A stretch of DNA of 64,000 nt from Spironucleus salmonicida (Eukaryota): contig NC_090601.1 of the NCBI RefSeq assembly GCF_000497125.1, forward strand, positions 496,001-560,000, read 5' to 3'. A program made the translations under genes and the position numbers. Below, in pieces: positions 20,056 to 31,899 of the stretch. Positions within the stretch are counted from its first letter, which is position 1. Every line of letters starts with the position of its first letter. The notes under the pieces are model-generated. The model did not search any database. It saw nothing but the letters and a program-made list of their open reading frames with translations, and had not been told where the DNA came from.

Positions 20056-21792
20056 ATGACAGGAACATGTTCAGATACTATAAATAAGTGCGAGACTAAT
20101 AATTATTGTCCGGTAAATCCTGGTATTAATGAAATATTCTGTGTATAATGTACTCCAAATATGCCAGTACATACATTTTGTCACTGTAGTGAACAAGCTG
20201 TTCTTGATAGAAACTGCATTGAATGTAAAGAAAATGAGTGTACTAATTGTCGATTAGGGTATTTTATTAAAGAAAAACGTTGTACTAAATGCATGGAAAA
20301 TTGTAATAGTTGTGTAGACGAAACTACATGCACCAAATGCATAAACAGTTTCTATCTAACTAATGGAACCTGTAATAAATGCTTGATTAATTGTTAAAAT
20401 TGTTAAAATAAAAGTACATGTGAACTTTGCGCTTTGGGTTAAAGTTTAACAATTGAAAAAACTTGTTCTAATTGCCCAGAAAACTGTGCTAGATGCAACA
20501 ACTAAAATAAATGTAAATAATGCAGCTAAAGTTTTACTTTATCTACTAATAATACTTGCGATCCATGCTAAACTATAACTACTCTAGCCTAAAAATGTTA
20601 ATGTGGGAATAGATAGATAAGTGGCTGCCTAGATTGTAGCATAGACAACATTAGCTGCAAAACTTGTCTACCTGGCGGACGATTTTTGTATAATAGATGC
20701 GTAATTGACGAGTGCTAAACTGAATTAGACTGCAATAAAGGTTATTTTTGCTTTAAAATCAGTCTCCTTCAGAATACGTGTATAAAATGCAGAGAAAGAT
20801 GTGCATCTTGTAAAGGTGGTAGTAGTTTGTGCACTTCATGCCACTTTGGAGAGTATTTGGATGCTAATTTTTGTAAAAAATGTGAGATATAAGGCCCAAC
20901 TGGATTTAGTTGCTAATGTGGAGATAACTTAATTAGTAATTGTGGATTATGCACAGGAAATTCTTGTTAGACATGTATACATGGATTCAGTTTAGTTAAT
21001 GGTGTATGTTAAGTATGTTCAGATAATATAGAAGGTGATTCATGTTAATGCAATGAAAAGTATATTATGAATTGTACAGAATGCGGAGAATAAGGATGTT
21101 AAAAATGTATTAACGGTTATATTTATGACGGATAAGTATGTAAGCTAAGTAGTTGTGAAGCCGAAAATTTTTGTGGCAACGGAATGTACTGTGATACCAC
21201 ATCATCTTTATAGACATGCAAAGCGTGTATAGCTGGTTGTAGTTCTTGTTTAAATGGATTGAAATGTGATATATGTTAAAATAATTCATTTTTAAAGAAT
21301 TAAATTTGTGTTACTTGTTCTTAAAACAATACAGATCCATGTAATTGTGATGGTTAAATGATAAATGGATGTACAAACTGTAATGGGACATAATGTTAGA
21401 CATGCTCATCAGGTATGTATTTGAAAGCCAACTAATGTAATTAATGTATGTTGTTATAATTAGGTGAATAATGTTAATGTGGTTTGGTTAAGATTGATAA
21501 TTGTATCTAATGCGGTGATAGTGGTTAGTGTAATACTTGTGTAGAAGGTGCATAATTAGTAGATCACGTGTGCATTGATTGCACAATAAATCCTGAAAAA
21601 TGTGATAATAGCTATATTTCTACTAATTCTATAATAGGGATTATAGCTGGAATTATACTGCTATTAATATTAATTATACTTGGTATTACTTTTGCTGTTG
21701 TAAAATACAGAAAAAGAAAAGAAAAATTAAAATTAAATGATTTAAGCATGCTAGTTCGAAAAGAAACTTCAAGTAGTCAATTATTACTCTGA
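20056..21792 (+). CDS. Cysteine-rich membrane protein (578 aa)
   Basis: MTGTCSDTINKCETNNYCP; furin-like CxxC repeats; TM IIGIIAGIILLLILIILGITFAVV followed by KYRKRK. Confidence 0.9.
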
Positions 21793-22533
21793 TTTTTTTT
21801 AAATATTAATCAAAAAATTATATAAAATTTAATTTATCTATTACTAACCTAAAAAGAATTTTACTAATTTAGAGTAAATTAATTTATATTAATAAACTCA
21901 GTTATATTCTAAAGATTAATTATAAAACACAATATAGTTTTTTGTAAACTAGAAGATTTATACAGTAAAAATATCTTAAGCTCGTAAATAAGATGGATAA
22001 TTTAAGTAGAGTATTACTATCCATGCAACTTATTATATTTAACATTTTTAATAAATTTTGCGGAATGTCATTGTCAAATAATATCAATTAAAATACAAGC
22101 TATCTAAAATAGTCATAAACCCTAACAAATAAAATTTAAATATTAATGGTTATTAGTGTCTCATAAAAATATGAAATTAACATATTTATATTTTATTAAC
22201 AATTTTTAACTTCACAAGCACTTAAATAATGATGAATAATTAAAACATATTTTTTGCTTAAAAATACGATATAAGTTACATTAAATCATAATTAAAATCA
22301 TAGTTTATATGGTCTTCAAATTGAGCAAATTATTGAAACATGATGAATTTTCTTATCTAAAATGTTCTTAATTATTCACCATATAATTTCATAACATATT
22401 TATGATATATTATTATAAAATATCAATAAAATTAACATATAAGCTAAACTATACAATACAAAGGTTGGTTTTAATGTTATCTCCCTATTATCATTAAATA
22501 TTATACAAATTTTAATATACTTTCCATCATTAA

Positions 22534-23136
22534 ATGCCAATTCCACTACCAGGTAGCCATGCTCCTAATTTCTAAATAGATGTCCTCACGCCAACATTAT
22601 CATTTGAAAAACGCCAATTATCCGATTATAAAGGAAAGTATCTTGTTATTGTCTTTTATCCTTTAGATTTTGCATTCGTTTGTCCTTCAGAAATAATACA
22701 CTTTTCCGAAGCTTCTGCTTAGCTTAAAATTCATACTTGCGATATAATAATAGGTTCATGTGATTCTTAATATACACATTTTGCGTGGTCTCTTTAGGAA
22801 TAAAGCGAAGGAGGTATCGGTGTGTGTAAATGTGATATTTTTGCTGATAAGTCAACTAAAATGTCACAAGATTTTGGAGTTTTAACTGAGGGATAAGGAA
22901 AGGCATTGAGAGGAATTTTTATTATTTCAGATACTGGGATTGTTAGGTCTGTAACTGTAAACGATTTTTAAGTAGGTAGATCCGTTGAAGAGTGTCTGAG
23001 GCTTGTTCAGGCCTTTTAGTATGCAGACAAAACAGGGGCTGGGGTTCCCTGTGGTTGGAGTCCAGAGAAACCGGATGAAGTAGTAAAAGGTACTATAGAG
23101 GAGAAAAAGGAATTTTATAAAAGGAATTTTGATTGA
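22534..23136 (+). CDS. 2-Cys peroxiredoxin, AhpC/Prx1 family (200 aa)
   Basis: [57 protein letters not shown]-terminal VPCGW. Confidence 0.95.
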
Positions 23137-23504
23137 TATTTTGATTTACGATACTTAAAAAGTATAATAAATAGCCCATTTGCTATACTATTGTATTGAA
23201 TTTACAATAAATTTGATGATGACAAATTTATATATATGGGATATATAAAGTAAATCAGGTTTATATAGTGAGGAGCATTAATTAACTTTCAATATTCGTA
23301 TTTACAGTATTTTAAATTCATTTTTAAAATATATTTACGCATTATATATAATAAAGTTAATGCAACTATTTAAATTTTATTCTAAAATCTTCAATATAAA
23401 TTCTATTATTCAAGCACATATTTAACGATTATAAAAGATTAATCTTATGTTATTCGATAAATCATTATATTAATAGAGTGTATTAATTTTTATATAATTA
23501 CAAA

Positions 23505-24068
23505 ATGAACATAGTTGAACGTTATCAAGAGCATATTGATCAAGCTATATCATTATCTAAAATTGATGCATATAGAACACATACAGATATATTTATTCAT
23601 CTTGGACTGATATTTGATGCACTGGATAAACGATTAACTTTATTTTCTCCATAAATTTTTGCTTTATAGAATAAAGTATAAAAACCTTCCAATATTATTG
23701 AAGATGGGTAGGAAACATCACGAATCATAGAAGGTTTAAAGACTGAAAATAAAATTTTGTAGTCACGTTTGAACACGATTATTACTGCGAATACTCGACT
23801 TTAGAAGTTTCATATACACAAAGATTAAGAGATAGGCCAATAAAGTATTTATGAAGTAGTTGGAGAGTATCAGTTAAAGTATATTAAACTACAAAATGAG
23901 CATCACAAAATAGATTAAGAATGTAGTAATTATAGAAAATTAGCCTCAGAAAATATAGGACTATAGATACCGAAATTGAGCATATCTCCTATCATAAAAT
24001 CTGTGCTGAATAAGCGTGGTATTTCTGTCTGTGAAAATAGGCTCATAAAGACTGGACGAATTTAGTGA
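23505..24068 (+). CDS. Hypothetical coiled-coil protein (187 aa)
   Basis: aaaATG MNIVERYQEHIDQAISL..., ending TAG TGA. Confidence 0.7.
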
Positions 24069-24283
24069 TATATTTATTAAGAGCATAAAAGATAAAATAT
24101 TTAATTTGATTATCTTTCAAAAAATTAAAATATTGAGTTCTACATTATAAATTTACAATTATAACTAATAATAGGTTTATATTGATATAGGTTTTTCATG
24201 AAAATAGCATATTTTCCATATCAATTTAAATTCAACAATGTTATTTGCCACTTAAAAAGTATAGTGTCACTATTTAAATTAAT

Positions 24284-24706
24284 TCAATCATCAAGTAACA
24301 CAACAAATAGTTTAAATGCACCGCAAATACCATAATTTTTCACACTAATAGCAGCATTTTATAATAAATCTCCATTTGCTTTTCGAATTTAAATGTTATT
24401 ATATTAAATTAAATTTGAAGCATATTCATATAGACAACAAGATTACATTTCTTAATTAGTTTTAATGATTGTTGATATTCCATCAGGGAATGAAAGTTTG
24501 ATTATGGTATCGTTTATAGTAAAAGATGGAATATATAATAAAGGATTGATATCTTAAATTAAAGTTTATTTTTAATTTTTAATATCTGAAATAATTTTTG
24601 GGACTCCTAAAAACCTTTCTACTTATATTTAAGGTTATTTTATCACTTTAATCGTCGGGTTCTTTGTAGCTGTTTTGGTTTTTTTAAATTTTACTCTTGA
24701 CTACAT
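24284..24706 (-). CDS. Protein with a C-terminal UBX/ubiquitin-like fold (140 aa)
   Basis: DTIIKLSFPDGISTIIKT...LYEYA...SVKNYGICGAFKLFVVL resembles the UBX beta-grasp pattern. Confidence 0.55.
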
Positions 24707-25581
24707 TTTATGAAATGTGAACTTTATTATTATATACATTCTATTTAAATAAATAATAAGTTAAAATATTAACGTAGATATCTTCATACCATACAATTTA
24801 CTAACTCTGCTAGCATTGAGTATATATTCTCTAAATTTTAGTTATATAAGACTACTAAATGCAATAGATCTATTTCTTTTATATTCACTACCTTGTTGGT
24901 TTTAGCTATAATGTCACTAATATGAATTATTTATAGATTTGGCATAAATTTACCATATTGGACAGTAATTTGGGTATATTCTACAAAGTTCAATCATTCT
25001 GTCAGTAATTACTAATTATTTGTACCGTAGTAATCAATTTATAATTTAAATAATTTTTAGATTTTATTTAGTATTTAAACGTATCAATTCAATTACTATG
25101 ATTATTGCAAGAAGGTCTGTATGTTATTTGAGAGTTTGGATTATTAAGAGGATTAACATAAAATTACATACTAGAGATAATTCTTTTTAACATAAAAAAT
25201 TATTCTAATGTTACATCTCATTTTATTTCTTTAAATATGATATTTCTTGTATTTCCATACTATTTAAAGTTTTAGGAAAAAACTAGATTTATTATTTACA
25301 CCTAAGTTTATATATTTATATAATTAAACTATGATGTAAATATTCTAATAAATTCGTATTATATTATATAATTTACAATGAAGAGTTTGTTTATTATTAA
25401 AACTAAAAGTTGAACCAAATATAATTTATTTATATTATATCAATAGAAGTAATTATGTTTAAAGACTGAATAAAAATAGATATATCATATATCATCTTTA
25501 GAATTTGTATAAACATAATCACAATATTTTTAGAATGTTAATAATTATTAATATAATTAATAATTAAAAAATATTTTTAAA

Positions 25582-25767
25582 ATGAAACCTTAACAACATT
25601 GCAGGAAGCACAACTCTGTAGTTATACTGAATGCGGCACATCCAATTATAGTTTAAAAAAGATAGTAGAATTTACTTCGGAATGTAAGTTTTAATAATAC
25701 CTCACCACGTATTAAGCATAAAGATTATTTTGAAGGATTTGTAAGTTTTGATACGGTTATTGAATGA
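25582..25767 (+). CDS. Microprotein family member A (61 aa)
   Basis: MKPQQHCRKHNSVVILNAAHPIIVQKRQQNLLRNVSFNNTSPRIKHKDYFEGFVSFDTVIE; paralogous to the ORFs at 26220 and 27412. Confidence 0.75.
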
Positions 25768-26219
25768 GAATTAGTCAGTGAAAGTTATGTATACTAATGA
25801 ATTTTTAGTAATAATTCCTATTTGTGTAAAAGCTCATTCATACAAATTTAGATAAAGATACTAATAATAAGACTACTATCTATTACACTTATAATTTTAC
25901 TTGTGAATAATTTTTACTATTAATTTATGCAATCTATTTTGATATAATTTATTCATTAAAGAATATACTTTTATGTTATAATTATATTTATTTTACGAAT
26001 ATAAAGAAAGAAAATTGAGCATATAAAATTGAAAACATAATTATTGTTATTAGCAGAATTTATTTTAATTATTATAGCTCATAATAATTTATTTCAATAT
26101 TTTTACAGATTTTGAACTAACCTTATTATAATAAATTATAAAGATAAGAAAAGAAACTGATAAAGCTTTATCAGTATTACAATAATAAGATTATTTTAAT
26201 ACGCAACTAATTGTTTGAA

Positions 26220-26405
26220 ATGAATGTAAAAACAAAATCAACAACTAAAAACGCTATGGTAATTCTTTAGTCTGCCTTCCCCACTATAGTAAAAGATAGA
26301 CAGCAGTAGTTGTTTTCTGATGTTTACATTCATCCTAGCTCTCCTCGTATTAAACCTAAAAACTATTTATAAGAATTTGTTAGTTTTGACTCAACAAATG
26401 AGTGA
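26220..26405 (+). CDS. Microprotein family member B (61 aa)
   Basis: MNVKTKSTTKNAMVILQSAFPTIVKDRQQQLFSDVYIHPSSPRIKPKNYLQEFVSFDSTNE; ends GAGTGA. Confidence 0.78.
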
Positions 26406-27041
26406 CTATATTTATAATAAAATCAATACGCTAAATAAAGTGAATCGATTTGGATATATTTTAATTTATCAAGTTAATATCTATATTAACTGAGACAATA
26501 GTAAAATTGTTTAATTAATAGTTTACATTAAAACAATAATAACATGCATAATAAGACGATAAATTATGTTATAAAAATTATTATTCAGTATAACATTAGA
26601 GTCAAATTTTACTATGAATTTTATCTCAGCCGCCTATAAATTAAATTGTTAGTAAAAATCTATGCGATATTAAAATTTATAATTTGTCCTAATTTATAGT
26701 ATTTTATGCAACGCTAATTTTGTATATAAATAATTAAAATACATAATGAGATTATATACTAAACTAAGATGTGCCCTATTTTACTTAAGGAGAATATATT
26801 TAAATATATCGACTTAATTTTAATAAAAATATGTTTTTATTACCATAAAAATTTAGAGGCAATATCAATACAACAATACAGAATAATTAACTTAAACTAA
26901 TATTGCTTAAATTAACTATAATTAGTTTAGATACTATTGTTGTAGCATCAAAAAGGCAATTAGTTTATTTACATTAAAATCCTTTAATCTATATAAAAAA
27001 CTAAATCACTATATATTAATATAATTATATTTTTTTAGAAA

Positions 27042-27290
27042 ATGCATGATTTAACTATTTTTGTTTAATCACTTAAATAGTAGAGAGTCAAGATTAATCT
27101 TAAAACAAATGAGGTTATTCACGGTACTGTACAATCGACAGATAACCAACAAAATATATATCTTATTGATGCAATAATTGATGATAATGAGGTTGATAAA
27201 GTTTTAGTAAGAGGTAGCTCTGTATAATCCATTTAGTCTCTATAATAATTAGATAAGGTACTTTAAAAATGTGCATCGAAAGTATTATGA
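27042..27290 (+). CDS. Sm/LSm-fold RNA-binding protein, SmD1/LSm2-like (82 aa)
   Basis: FVQSLKQQRVKINLKTNEVIHGTVQSTDNQQNIYLIDA (Sm1) and VDKVLVRGSSVQSIQ (Sm2, RG motif). Confidence 0.85.
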
Positions 27291-27411
27291 AGAAAGTGAA
27301 TCAATATTAAGTATGATATTCGAAAATAGATTTGTATTGTTATTTGAATTAGGATATTTTATTTAATATACCTATATATTGAAATAGTTAGAATAAAAGT
27401 TTTATTATAAA

Positions 27412-27591
27412 ATGGACCACTTAAAACAACTTAGTGAAAACTCTATAACGATGCTAACATCAGCATAGCCATATGCAGTTAGTAAAGGATAGAGGTTAAA
27501 ATTTAGTAAATTTACAGATGGGTTATCTACTCCTTAAATATCGCCTAGAGATTATCTATAAGATTATGAAAGCTTTTACTAAAATGAATGA
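27412..27591 (+). CDS. Microprotein family member C (59 aa)
   Basis: MDHLKQLSENSITMLTSAQPYAVSKGQRLKFSKFTDGLSTPQISPRDYLQDYESFYQNE. Confidence 0.72.
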
Positions 27592-27728
27592 AAATATAGT
27601 TATTTGATAATATATTAACATAATAATAATTAATAGCGTTTACTTAAAAAATTATTTACGTAATATAATAACTTACTATATAATTTATATGAATTATATA
27701 TTAAAATACTAGTATATTATAAGATAAA

Positions 27729-27983
27729 ATGATTTATGACGATATAGAGAGTTGTTAAAAATAGTGTAAGCTTGTTTGTACTTAGACAAAAAAAGGATAT
27801 CAATGCAAACATATTGTAGTATAGTGGGTGCTTTTTACGTTGTTCCTGATTGCATTTTTTGCTATTTTTGTCGTAGTTATTTTTATAGTTATTAAAAAGT
27901 TAATCAGGAGAAATAAATTACTCCAGTAATCAAAATTAATTTTGGAATGCGATATTTAGTATTCATCGTCTTATAATTAATGA
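27729..27983 (+). CDS. Small single-pass membrane protein with a 4-Cys N-terminal domain (84 aa)
   Basis: MIYDDIESCQKQCKLVCTQTKKGYQCK, long hydrophobic helix, then KKLIRRNK. Confidence 0.7.
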
Positions 27984-28908
27984 TTATTTGATCAGTAAAG
28001 GGCGCATTGAGATATACCCTTCATTAGATTATAAATTATCATTTCACATTGCTTAATAGCAGTTAATTTTAAAAGTGTAAGTCTTATTATCTGAATGATA
28101 TTAATTGTAGATTACTACTTTAATAGTTAAAAAGGGATAAATATTTTCTTATTAGCTTAGTATATATGATTTATTAAAACAATGAGTATATTAAGGATTA
28201 TAGCAATTTATAGCGTGAAACTTTTGATTATAAGCGTTACAGTAGAAGTATAAGATTCAATAAAAAATTACATCTAACAAGTGAAAAATGAAAATTACTA
28301 GACCTAAGTAAAATTATGCATTTAATCTTTGTATATACATGTAAGTTAATTTGTAGGTTAAAACACTTACTATGATTTTAAATAAAATATCATATTTATA
28401 TTGATAAATATAATTTAGGAATAGTTTATCATGTTCTGTATTCATATATTAAACAAAAATTATATGTGATTTGTTCAAACTGATAATTAATGTCTAAATA
28501 TCAGACAATTATAGTGATATGATTATAATCAAATCAATATTGTATTTATAATAAATAGAATTTATCAATTTCTAATAAGATTTTATAATGTTCAAACAAT
28601 ATTTTATCATATTTTTGTATATTTAAACAGTAATAAAGATTTAAATCTATATAAATATTAATAATGTTTACTTTTTAGATATTCTAATTTCTTTAGTATT
28701 TATTTATTCTCATTTATTTGTTTCAACATTAGTTATTTTATAACTATCATATTAATATCAAATTTAATAATATACTAGTATGATACTATTAATATTATAT
28801 ATAAATAAATATTAAATAGAAAATCAGAGTTTTTATTTATAGAATAAAAAAATATAACAATATAATAATAATAGATTTTCTTTTCATCACCACTTCGCAA
28901 ATACACAA

Positions 28909-29490
28909 ATGTCACAAACTTTTATTAAATGTGTTGTTGTAGGAGATGGTGCTGTTGGTAAAACATGTTTGATACACGTATTTACTTAAAATTGTTTCCC
29001 AGAAGATTATATTCCAACAGTTTTTGATAACTACTAAACCAATATAGACCTAGATAATCGTAATTTTCAGCTTGGTATTTGGGATACTGCTGGATAGGAT
29101 GATTATGATTCAGTTCGTCCTTTATCATACTCTGGCGCATAAGTATTTTTAATTTGCTACTCAATTATGGCTCCAGCAAACTTTGATAATGTTCGTTAAA
29201 AATGGGCACCTGAAATTTTTGCATACAAAAAAGATATTCCAATTATTTTAGTAGGTACAAAGGGAGATTTATTAAATGACTAGGAGGCATTAGACGAATT
29301 GAAGGCCCAAACAAAATCAGTTCCTGTTACTACTGAATAAGCTGCCGCTATGCAAAAGGAAATTGGTGCAATTGGTAACGTCGTAATTAGCGCTAGAACA
29401 GGAAAAGGTGTTAAAGAATTATTCGAAAATGCAGTAAGAGCTGCTATTACCCCTATTAATAAGAAAAAAGGAGGTTGTGGCACCAATTGA
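28909..29490 (+). CDS. Rho-family (Rac-like) small GTPase (193 aa)
   Basis: IKCVVVGDGAVGKTCL, YIPTVFDNY, WDTAGQ (Q encoded by TAG), RPLSY, LVGTKGDL; tail KKKGGCGTN. Confidence 0.97.
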
Positions 29491-29614
29491 AATGAGTGAG
29501 CGTTAAAAATCATTAACATTACTTTTTAATAACGTATAAATACGAAAATCCATAATATAAACTTATTATTATACACTATAATACATATTCCCTTCCAATT
29601 CTCTATTCACTGAA

Positions 29615-30166
29615 ATGAATTTCTTACCTGCTGAATTTTTAAAGTAAGCGCCACCAGTTACTTATAATTATGCTATAATTATAATTTTAATTAGTGTCGC
29701 TACTACATTAAACATTCTATCTCCATTTAACCTTATTTTTGATTTCGACTTAATTTTCAACAATTTTTAATTTCATAGATTGGTCACTGGTTTTTTATAT
29801 ACCGGTTCTATAAACCTCTAATGGTTAATCAATACATTTTCTAACATCTAAACACTGGCCAGAGCCGAAAACCATTTCCCAAGAAATTCATTGAAACTGT
29901 TATTCACATATCTTCTATTATCAATTACCTTGTTTTCCAAATTCATCCCGATGCCCTTACCTTCAATTCCATTCCTTTCCGCAATTTCTACGATTTTTGT
30001 TATTTACTTCCCAGATAACTTAGTGTAAATTTTCGGTATTTTCGAGATGAAAGCGAAGTATCTGCCTGCGATTCAGCTGGCGCTCTCCAATGACTACCGG
30101 GTTTAAATACTTGGCATGGCTATTGGTGCAGGATGGGTCCTAATTGAGAGAACCCTGCTGAAGTGA
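29615..30166 (+). CDS. Derlin (Der1-like) ERAD membrane protein (183 aa)
   Basis: APPVTY...LSPFNLIFDFDLIFNNFQFHRLVTGFLYTG...VQIFGIFEMKAKYLP; ends AAGTGA. Confidence 0.85.
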
Positions 30167-30176
30167 GCGAAAATTA

Positions 30177-30665
30177 TCATTTCAAGCGTCTGTTGTTTTA
30201 GCTACCTAGCGCCCCTTACTTACTGTTGAACTACTCGTGAAAGGTGCCAATTTCGTCCTCCTCCATATTGAATAGGTCCCTTCTGATGTTCTCCTTTCCA
30301 GTTTTAAGGTCCTTTTCGTACCTCCCGATAACACGTTTTTCACCTATTTGTTGGAAGTGTTCTTTCTGCTCCATATCGTTCGATCTGGTGTGCTTTTTAG
30401 TCTCTACAACTCCGTTTGGGAGAATTGTTGTGGAGGTGGATGAGCAGTAGTATTATGATGATGATGGTTCGTGCGGTTTCTGGAAAAAGGTGTCGAGTTC
30501 TTAAAATGCATTTTGGAATGGGTCATTTTTGAAGAAATTTTAGTGCATTTAAGACATTTGGTTGAAGATAGATTATTAGTCGCCGAATGGGCTCATGAAA
30601 TTATCACTAATTTGACCGAAATCATCAGGAGAGAGATGGTTGGTTAGATTAGATTTTCTGGACAT
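30177..30665 (-). CDS. Myeloid leukemia factor (MLF)-like protein (162 aa)
   Basis: F/M/DPF-rich N-terminus, YYCSSTST, PNGVVETKK...QQIGEKR...KDLKTGKENIRRDLFNMEEDEIGTFHEQF parallels the MLF domain. Confidence 0.75.
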
Positions 30666-31392
30666 TATGTGGAATGATATGTTTAAAAAAAGGAAAGGAA
30701 ATTTGAGGATATACTTATATAAAGTATAATAATAAAGTAGTAAAAAATATGTAAATTAATCAAATTCGAATAAATTTTAGATTGAGTAAAATTACATAAT
30801 ATACATTATATACTAATTCTTTATTTGTTTCTCTAGGATGGTAAATGAAAATATTTTATCTAAATTCATATTGTAATTAATTGTAGAATTTATCATGTAA
30901 TTACATAAAATTGATACAATTGTTTACAATCTTTAACTTATAATTTTAGTTAACAGATATATAAATAAAGTGAAGATACTGTATAATTTCTCTGTTTAAT
31001 AAATACAATTAAACATTATCTTATTTTAGTTATAGTTGTTATTACTTTAAAAAATAACATGATATTTATCAGTTTATTTTACACTCTTAATAAAGTGAAG
31101 TAATTATGCTCTAAACAGATAATATAAAAAGTGCATCTTATCTACATCACCATTATATCAAATCTAAATTTGATGACTAATGTACAACTACAAATTTATA
31201 AATATTTAGCTTGAAAATTGATTGAAATATATTAAGATCAGTTAATAAATTAATGGATATGCCTTTATGGATATACTTAATCATGACCAATAATTAATTC
31301 TATATGATATTTAAGTGCTTATTCTGACGCCTTTAGAAATAATATTCACTAACCATTTCAATTACACCCTTTGAACACATTTACAAATTGCA

Positions 31393-31899
31393 ATGGATCG
31401 ATTGGAAAATGCTGAATTATTGTTCTACAAATTATCTAAACACTCAAGCAAGTACCAGTAAATACCCATTAGAATATTGCAGAAAAGCTCTGCAAATCAC
31501 ATTTTTTCTGCACCACGAATTTGTCAAATTATATATCAGCAGGCGAACTAAAGTATCCCTAAATTTCTTCTCCACCCACTCAACAGACTGCCATAACTCT
31601 CCCAATTCGCCTTAAATTCACAATTTCATACACCAGATTTCACCATATTTACTTGCAAAACGACCCTTAAAATAGTGACACTGCTCAAACGGCATCTTTC
31701 TACATTTAGAATTTTTTCCTAAAATCACTCTCAGGACTTAAAAAAACGTGAATAAATGCTCAATTTGGCCACCAAAACGCTGAAATCTTTATATTAAAGT
31801 TTGCAAGCGGCCTAGACTGGCATTTCCGGCATGGATTTTCAGGAATTAAAAAAACCAAATCTGCACAAAGCAAAAATCTGCAGAACAGACCGCCCCTGA
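31393..31899 (+). CDS. Possible hypothetical protein (168 aa)
   Basis: TGA-free frame from ATG; no motif recognised. Confidence 0.25.

Follow-up and report, generated by a model that had tools for sequence, protein, structure and literature searches.

The 64,000-nucleotide stretch of the Spironucleus salmonicida genome analysed here (the window) contains three short same-strand open reading frames (ORFs) of nearly equal length, which raises the question of whether these frames are genes, whether they form one family, and what peptides of this size would do in the cell. S. salmonicida is a transfectable fish parasite, and a code with a single stop codon makes it easy for annotation to pass over short genes. 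The sequence-only reading had described ORFs of 61, 61 and 59 aa with a shared motif, and an Sm/LSm gene between the second and the third; coordinates, lengths, strand and motif agree with that description, as does a PF01423 match to the intervening gene (Table 1).

Table 1. Features of the locus, in window coordinates; copies A, B and C are translated under genetic code table 6
Feature	Position	Strand	Properties
Copy A	25582-25767	+	61 aa, pI 10.0; deposited hypothetical protein, probably SS50377_12590
Copy B	26220-26405	+	61 aa, pI 9.5; apparently unannotated
Copy C	27412-27591	+	59 aa, pI 5.7; most diverged copy; apparently unannotated
Sm/LSm gene between B and C	27042-27290	+	82 aa; PF01423, E 1.2e-9; probably SS50377_12588
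Conserved element 1 of A (Asn11 to about residue 33)	25612-25680	+	L-x-x-A-x-P-x-x-V-x3-Q, predicted helix-kink-helix; same element in B and C
Conserved element 2 of A (Ser41-Phe56)	25702-25749	+	[ST]-P-[RQ]-I-x2-[KR]-[DN]-Y-[FL]-x2-[FY]-x-S-F; same element in B and C; P-type cyclins have a similar first cyclin-box motif

The three peptides align in a gap-free register across 46 residues, from a shared Asn to a Ser-Phe pair, with identities of 44% for A-B, 37% for B-C and 27% for A-C. Thirteen columns are invariant (M1, N11, L16, A19, P21, V24, Q28, P42, I44, Y49, S55, F56 and E61). Smith-Waterman scores are 124 for A-B, 84 for B-C and 68 for A-C. None of 5000 shuffles attains any of these values, and of the 1123 frames of the window the best unrelated one scores 43. 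In the DNA itself, 24800-28400 holds a single family of three-copy direct repeats, which sits inside the coding regions, at conserved element 2. No repeat common to the flanks of the copies was found there, and GC bumps match the ORF positions.

Diverged DNA combined with a persisting protein pattern had suggested purifying selection, and codon models bear this out. Under GY94 with code 6, applied to the 46-codon gap-free core, which was picked after the alignment was known, the three-way omega is 0.057 (LRT p 4e-7). Taken pair by pair, omega lies well below 1 for A-B (0.10, p 1e-6) and B-C (0.06, p 0.002), whereas A-C is not significant alone (0.35, p 0.089); intergenic base frequencies in the model give lower omega values. 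Nei-Gojobori dN/dS counts over the full length are 0.43/1.89 for A-B, 0.70/1.36 for B-C and 0.86/0.74 for A-C, the last of these showing no purifying selection, and synonymous sites among the copies are near saturation. Conservation is also frame-specific: by BLOSUM score the annotated frame is the best of six in all three pairs, a score reached by column shuffles in 3, 1 and 0 of 5000 cases across the pairs, with the identity count reached in 11, 614 (A-C) and 0 of 5000. Codon-position identity between A and B is 0.57/0.75/0.46. Collectively, the three copies code for proteins and make up a small lineage-restricted family, which goes back to an ancient tandem duplication within Spironucleus and is maintained by protein-level selection, an assignment that we hold with high confidence.

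All three copies begin with an AAA-ATG start, compared with 6% of 1270 background small ORFs. This start element, together with an AGTGA overlap of poly(A) signal and stop codon, is described for S. salmonicida (PMC3916229). AGTGA covers the stop codon of B and lies about 13 nt past the stop of A, and no exact AGTGA occurs within 60 nt of the stop of C. The terminal Glu-stop, proposed earlier as a mark of the family, loses that standing because Glu is the last residue in 8 of 31 long ORFs of the genome, and it probably reflects the genome-wide AGTGA signal. Codon-usage scores are modest: the share of background small ORFs that equal them is 15% for A, 7% for B and 17% for C, and in A another frame has about the same score. 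No upstream motif shared by the three was found. The four available contig sets come from one study and are presumed to be RNA, although none of the runs listed is recorded as such; they are deep over known genes and have ends of poly(A) type. A reading in which each copy is the first exon of a longer, spliced gene was rejected: a GT-rich word near the end occurs in A and B and is missing from C, no branch motif lies near the genes, and no splice joint is seen among the contig pieces listed.

The Sm/LSm gene, matched by SmG and SmD3 chains at E 1e-4 to 6e-4 and covered by contigs in all four runs, has no sequence relation to A, B or C and is a neighbour only. An 8-kb interval around the copies (22534-30665) also holds genes for a peroxiredoxin, Der1 and an MLF-like protein, all linked to protein quality control or stress, probably by coincidence in a compact genome. 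The Der1 (+) and MLF-like (-) genes are arranged tail to tail and would overlap at the 3' side by about 15 nt (30164-30179), to judge from the poly(A)-type ends of contigs at 30179 and 30164. Over the peroxiredoxin gene, a contig of run X1 with a loose T-run on its 5' side (22516) would represent either antisense polyadenylated RNA or a library artefact. A 171-aa ORF at 24198-24713 (+), with a hydrophobic segment at its end and low contig depth in run X4, is possibly another missed gene; two of its start forms were looked up among deposited proteins and neither was found. Downstream of C, an 84-aa ORF at 27729-27983 (+) begins at AAA-ATG, contains several cysteines and has a single membrane-helix-like stretch with basic residues after it; it is likewise not deposited. 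Low-depth contigs (3-7) at 24990-25174 and 27931-28182, each in two of the four runs and at places with no annotated gene or Rfam family, could correspond to further small genes, non-coding transcripts or DNA carry-over.

The peptides themselves are small (6.8-7.2 kDa) and differ in net charge, from +5 in A and +3 in B to -1 in C. The maximum 19-residue hydropathy is 0.02-0.49, no hydrophobic segment is present, and all three lie at the order/disorder boundary; they are predicted to be soluble and to lack a signal peptide, a membrane helix, cysteines conserved among the copies and a stable core. Models built from the three-row alignment contain two or three helices and no core, with pTM values of 0.30 and 0.20 that are expected from so shallow an alignment and are not proof of disorder. 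In the model of A, helices span residues 12-19 and 21-33 at pLDDT 70-80, and the model of C is helical as well, more weakly. The conserved positions form two blocks. Residues 11-28 make up a Leu/Ala/Pro/Val/Gln helix-kink-helix, and residues 41-56 an aromatic stretch led by S/T-P, a layout that would be expected of a peptide folding on a partner.

On this basis, we consider A, B and C to be lineage-restricted, mostly unstructured small peptides that would fold on binding and serve a larger protein complex in an accessory or regulatory role, as its subunits, a reading to which we assign a probability of about 0.5. In such an arrangement, the helix-kink-helix would dock on the partner together with the C-terminal aromatic helix, which is headed by the conserved S/T-P, while the variable termini, the linker and the change in net charge would tune each copy. 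The conserved S/T-P could, speculatively, act as a phospho-switch. Expression would be low, with A rising when antioxidants are withdrawn, as judged through gene order.

Searches at several levels suggest that the family is restricted to this lineage. Across the genome (14.5 Mb, 42 contigs), protein searches with A, B and C return this cluster only. Three DNA patterns give 5, 28 and 57 matches compared with 2, 14 and 47 for controls; the loci examined comprise 5 of 5, 28 of 28 and 30 of 57, and three of the remaining 27 are A, B and C themselves. A profile HMM run over these loci and the window finds nothing beyond the three copies, the next best scoring 10.8 bits, and because the first-pass patterns are loose, distant copies may escape. 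Among deposited proteins, a word-based search returns A only, and a full HMMER scan yields three matches, A and two tandem-repeat translations that were rejected. None of 248 metagenome tblastn matches was confirmed, and Pfam, NCBIfam, PHROGs and PDB sequences contain nothing below E 0.05. Foldseek, queried with the low-confidence models, gives no match, and VIA-align gives none at Z of at least 5 (best Z 3.1 and 4.1 for models of pTM 0.30 and 0.20), with no cyclin among the matches listed, which with models of this quality says nothing either way. No description of the family was found in the literature, where papers are not searchable by sequence. The expectation of a family not described before stands across family and protein searches, with the genome, protein and metagenome collections returning only A, B and C to a three-row profile of small reach; "orphan" here means that no relative is detected with this profile in the collections searched. 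MicroProteins in the truncated-domain sense are likewise small, paralogous and built of one module. A, B and C differ from them in that no longer parent was found (0 of 150 candidate longer proteins scored as sharing a domain, which is weak evidence), and a cyclin parent is unproven.

The same limited reach gives room to a different interpretation, in which the three are fast-evolving orthologues of a conserved small eukaryotic subunit, such as a flagellar microtubule-associated or nuclear-complex component, that has diverged beyond detection. A 61-position, three-row profile is weak against 1.84 billion proteins, the A-C pair itself scoring only 68, and the diplomonad TBP offers a precedent, having no significant similarity in standard searches (PMC3916229). 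Against this interpretation stands the lack of any match in Pfam, NCBIfam or PDB sequences. One candidate, the Dpy-30/RIIa docking domain (PF05186), resembles the copies in size and in its helix-Pro-helix outline; it was rejected, as no PF05186 match occurs in A, B or C and a profile comparison with the four Dpy-30 domains of the genome gives a probability of 0.11%. In addition, SS50377_12590 is listed as a singleton orthogroup with no Giardia gene (PMC6397501). We regard a diverged conserved subunit as unlikely, and the lineage-restricted reading is retained below.

The cluster was at first described as hidden, which appears to hold for two of its three members. The exact sequence of A is deposited (UniRef, eukprot, MetaClust), whereas the exact sequences of B and C are absent from the same protein collection, and so is a 160-aa upstream-extended form of C. 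Gene order connects A to its published entry. The order MLF, Der1, Rac/Rho, LSm, two hypotheticals and peroxiredoxin in the S. salmonicida table equals the window order reversed; its accessions run gap-free from Rho to peroxiredoxin, with none between Rho and LSm and only two hypotheticals between LSm and peroxiredoxin, and tags 12587, 12589 and 12591 are absent from the part of the supplement that was searched (PMC6397501). Only a 187-aa ORF and Rho are deposited among ten ORFs looked up, and none of five other candidate ORFs tested from the LSm-peroxiredoxin interval is. Since the interval holds two hypotheticals and the 187-aa ORF is the sole other deposited candidate among those tested, gene order and deposition pattern identify A, by inference, with SS50377_12590. 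That entry is a hypothetical protein without InterPro domain, signal peptide or membrane helix, and it would belong to the 4057 S. salmonicida-specific hypothetical genes (PMC6397501). A differs from them by its two apparently unannotated tandem paralogues, through which a shared motif can be recognised and selection measured, as is not the case for a singleton. B and C are absent from the published gene table (PMC6397501), and none of the copies is mentioned in the searched files of the supplements of PMC3916229 and PMC6429047. The annotation combined gene predictors with manual review (PMC9509377), and B and C are apparently unannotated.

Expression data bear mainly on A. Without antioxidants, SS50377_12590 rises about 4-fold (log2FC 2.12, padj 0.013), and under oxygen it is not induced (log2FC 0.86, padj 0.39) (PMC6397501). 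Because its upstream neighbours rise with it (12592, log2FC 1.41; peroxiredoxin, 2.09), the increase may be a regional effect, and such a response is common, as 1221 species-specific genes change without antioxidants (PMC6397501). One contig of run X1 spans 25514-25719 over A at depth 4, a weak sign given that similar contigs occur outside annotated genes. B and C have no cover in the depth bins of the four contig sets (30 of 48 pieces listed), which is not evidence of silence.

These observations bear on whether A alone is active, with B and/or C being recently silenced relics still marked by past selection. The absence of B and C from deposited proteins and from the published table would fit such relics, as would the lack of an exact AGTGA near the stop of C. 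Even so, both frames are intact, match A in length and keep their AAA-ATG starts despite near-saturated synonymous sites, B carries AGTGA on its stop, and short genes are readily overlooked under a one-stop code. Silencing of B or C is accordingly quite unlikely, and we continue to treat all three as members of a maintained family.

A further proposal concerns the origin and partner of the peptides. The sequence-only reading had noted a loose likeness of element 2 to Pho80 and other P-type cyclins. On a truncated-cyclin proposal, A, B and C would derive from the N-terminal end of such a cyclin gene (helix plus first cyclin-box motif) and act as a microProtein, competing in CDK signalling with cyclins or with the partners on which these dock. 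The likeness covers about 15 residues similar to the cyclin-box start of P-type/Pho80-like cyclins (PF08613), namely P-x-I, [KR]-[DN]-Y-[LF] and, further on, two aromatic positions. A metagenome DNA pattern derived from element 2 of A and B only, which C itself does not match, finds 13 loci, two of them PF08613 cyclins matched exactly at the cyclin-box start; the other 11 have stops nearby (table 11) and comprise seven near-copies of one frame and four others. In a gap-free comparison of element 2 with seven P-type cyclins, 8 of 15 columns score strongly, and yeast Pho80 also keeps the P, I, N, Y, F and last F. The three copies rank high under an HMM built from the N-terminal part of the seven, with 6, 26 and 5 of 4591 background pieces above A, B and C respectively; these cyclins are relatives of a pattern match and were reached through the motif, so the ranking is partly circular.

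Other comparisons point away from a cyclin origin. Profile-profile alignment by hhalign gives a probability of 7% over 18 columns, and none of the three copies retains the Ile at +4 or the Arg at +10 of the cyclins. The seven cyclins are 124-200 aa long, compared with 59-61 aa for the copies, whose N-terminal half is unrelated: an HMM of the N-terminal cyclin helix shows no signal in A, B or C, with more than 1000 background pieces scoring as high. Full-length cyclin HMMs place no piece of the A/B/C region among the best four of 4591 six-frame pieces, none of the three copies exceeds the curated PF08613 cut-off, and a genome search with that family finds two other loci only. These two genomic P-type cyclins, L073 (G000:C7:264556-264876) and L074 (G000:C9:175413-175730), do not match the copies, and adding them to the HMM removes the signal. 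As an observation in its own right, both are without the usual first cyclin-box motif of the seven metagenome cyclins. A viral scan for further P-type cyclins confirmed 0 of 22. CDK binding is a property of the cyclin box of about 100 residues (PMC4643991), which is absent from peptides of 59-61 aa. A, B and C are not cyclins. By a rough estimate, their likeness lies near the best chance match, at about 20-27 bits compared with about 22 bits of family-positions.

The S/T-P sites add little to a CDK connection. Cited earlier as kinase sites, they lose their weight as evidence, as none of the four fits the full CDK consensus S/T-P-x-K/R and an S/T-P is expected in a 60-aa stretch with a probability of about 0.38 at the neighbours' rate; one S/T-P at the same column in all three copies does exceed what that rate implies. 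Among docking motifs checked by eye (RVxF, PxIxIT, PIP box, LxxIxE and RxL), none is kept in all three copies. What survives of the cyclin proposal is the short motif likeness, and the truncated-cyclin microProtein is improbable as a whole. Descent of the copies from a cyclin fragment appears very doubtful. Equally doubtful is the fuller scenario in which an N-terminal P-type cyclin fragment became stand-alone microproteins regulating CDK/cyclin signalling by mimicry while the full-length P-type cyclins of the genome drifted from the motif. Were the link true, it would place a cyclin-derived regulatory peptide in a lineage with poorly known cell-cycle control.

Finally, an origin of the similarity in chance, a non-coding repeat or an antisense frame, which the many random ORFs of a one-stop code might suggest (78 of at least 40 aa overlap 22000-31000), is rejected as next to impossible on the shuffle tests, the frame-specific conservation and the absence of any Rfam match in 21500-31500.

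The reading of A, B and C as a selected family of small, putatively fold-on-binding peptides represents a modest gain for the annotation of a genome in which about 4,000 hypothetical genes are species-specific. Two genes that were apparently missed would be added, and a listed singleton becomes one of a three-member family under selection. More broadly, annotation of genomes with one stop codon can overlook genes as short as about 60 aa, and comparison of paralogues can recover them.
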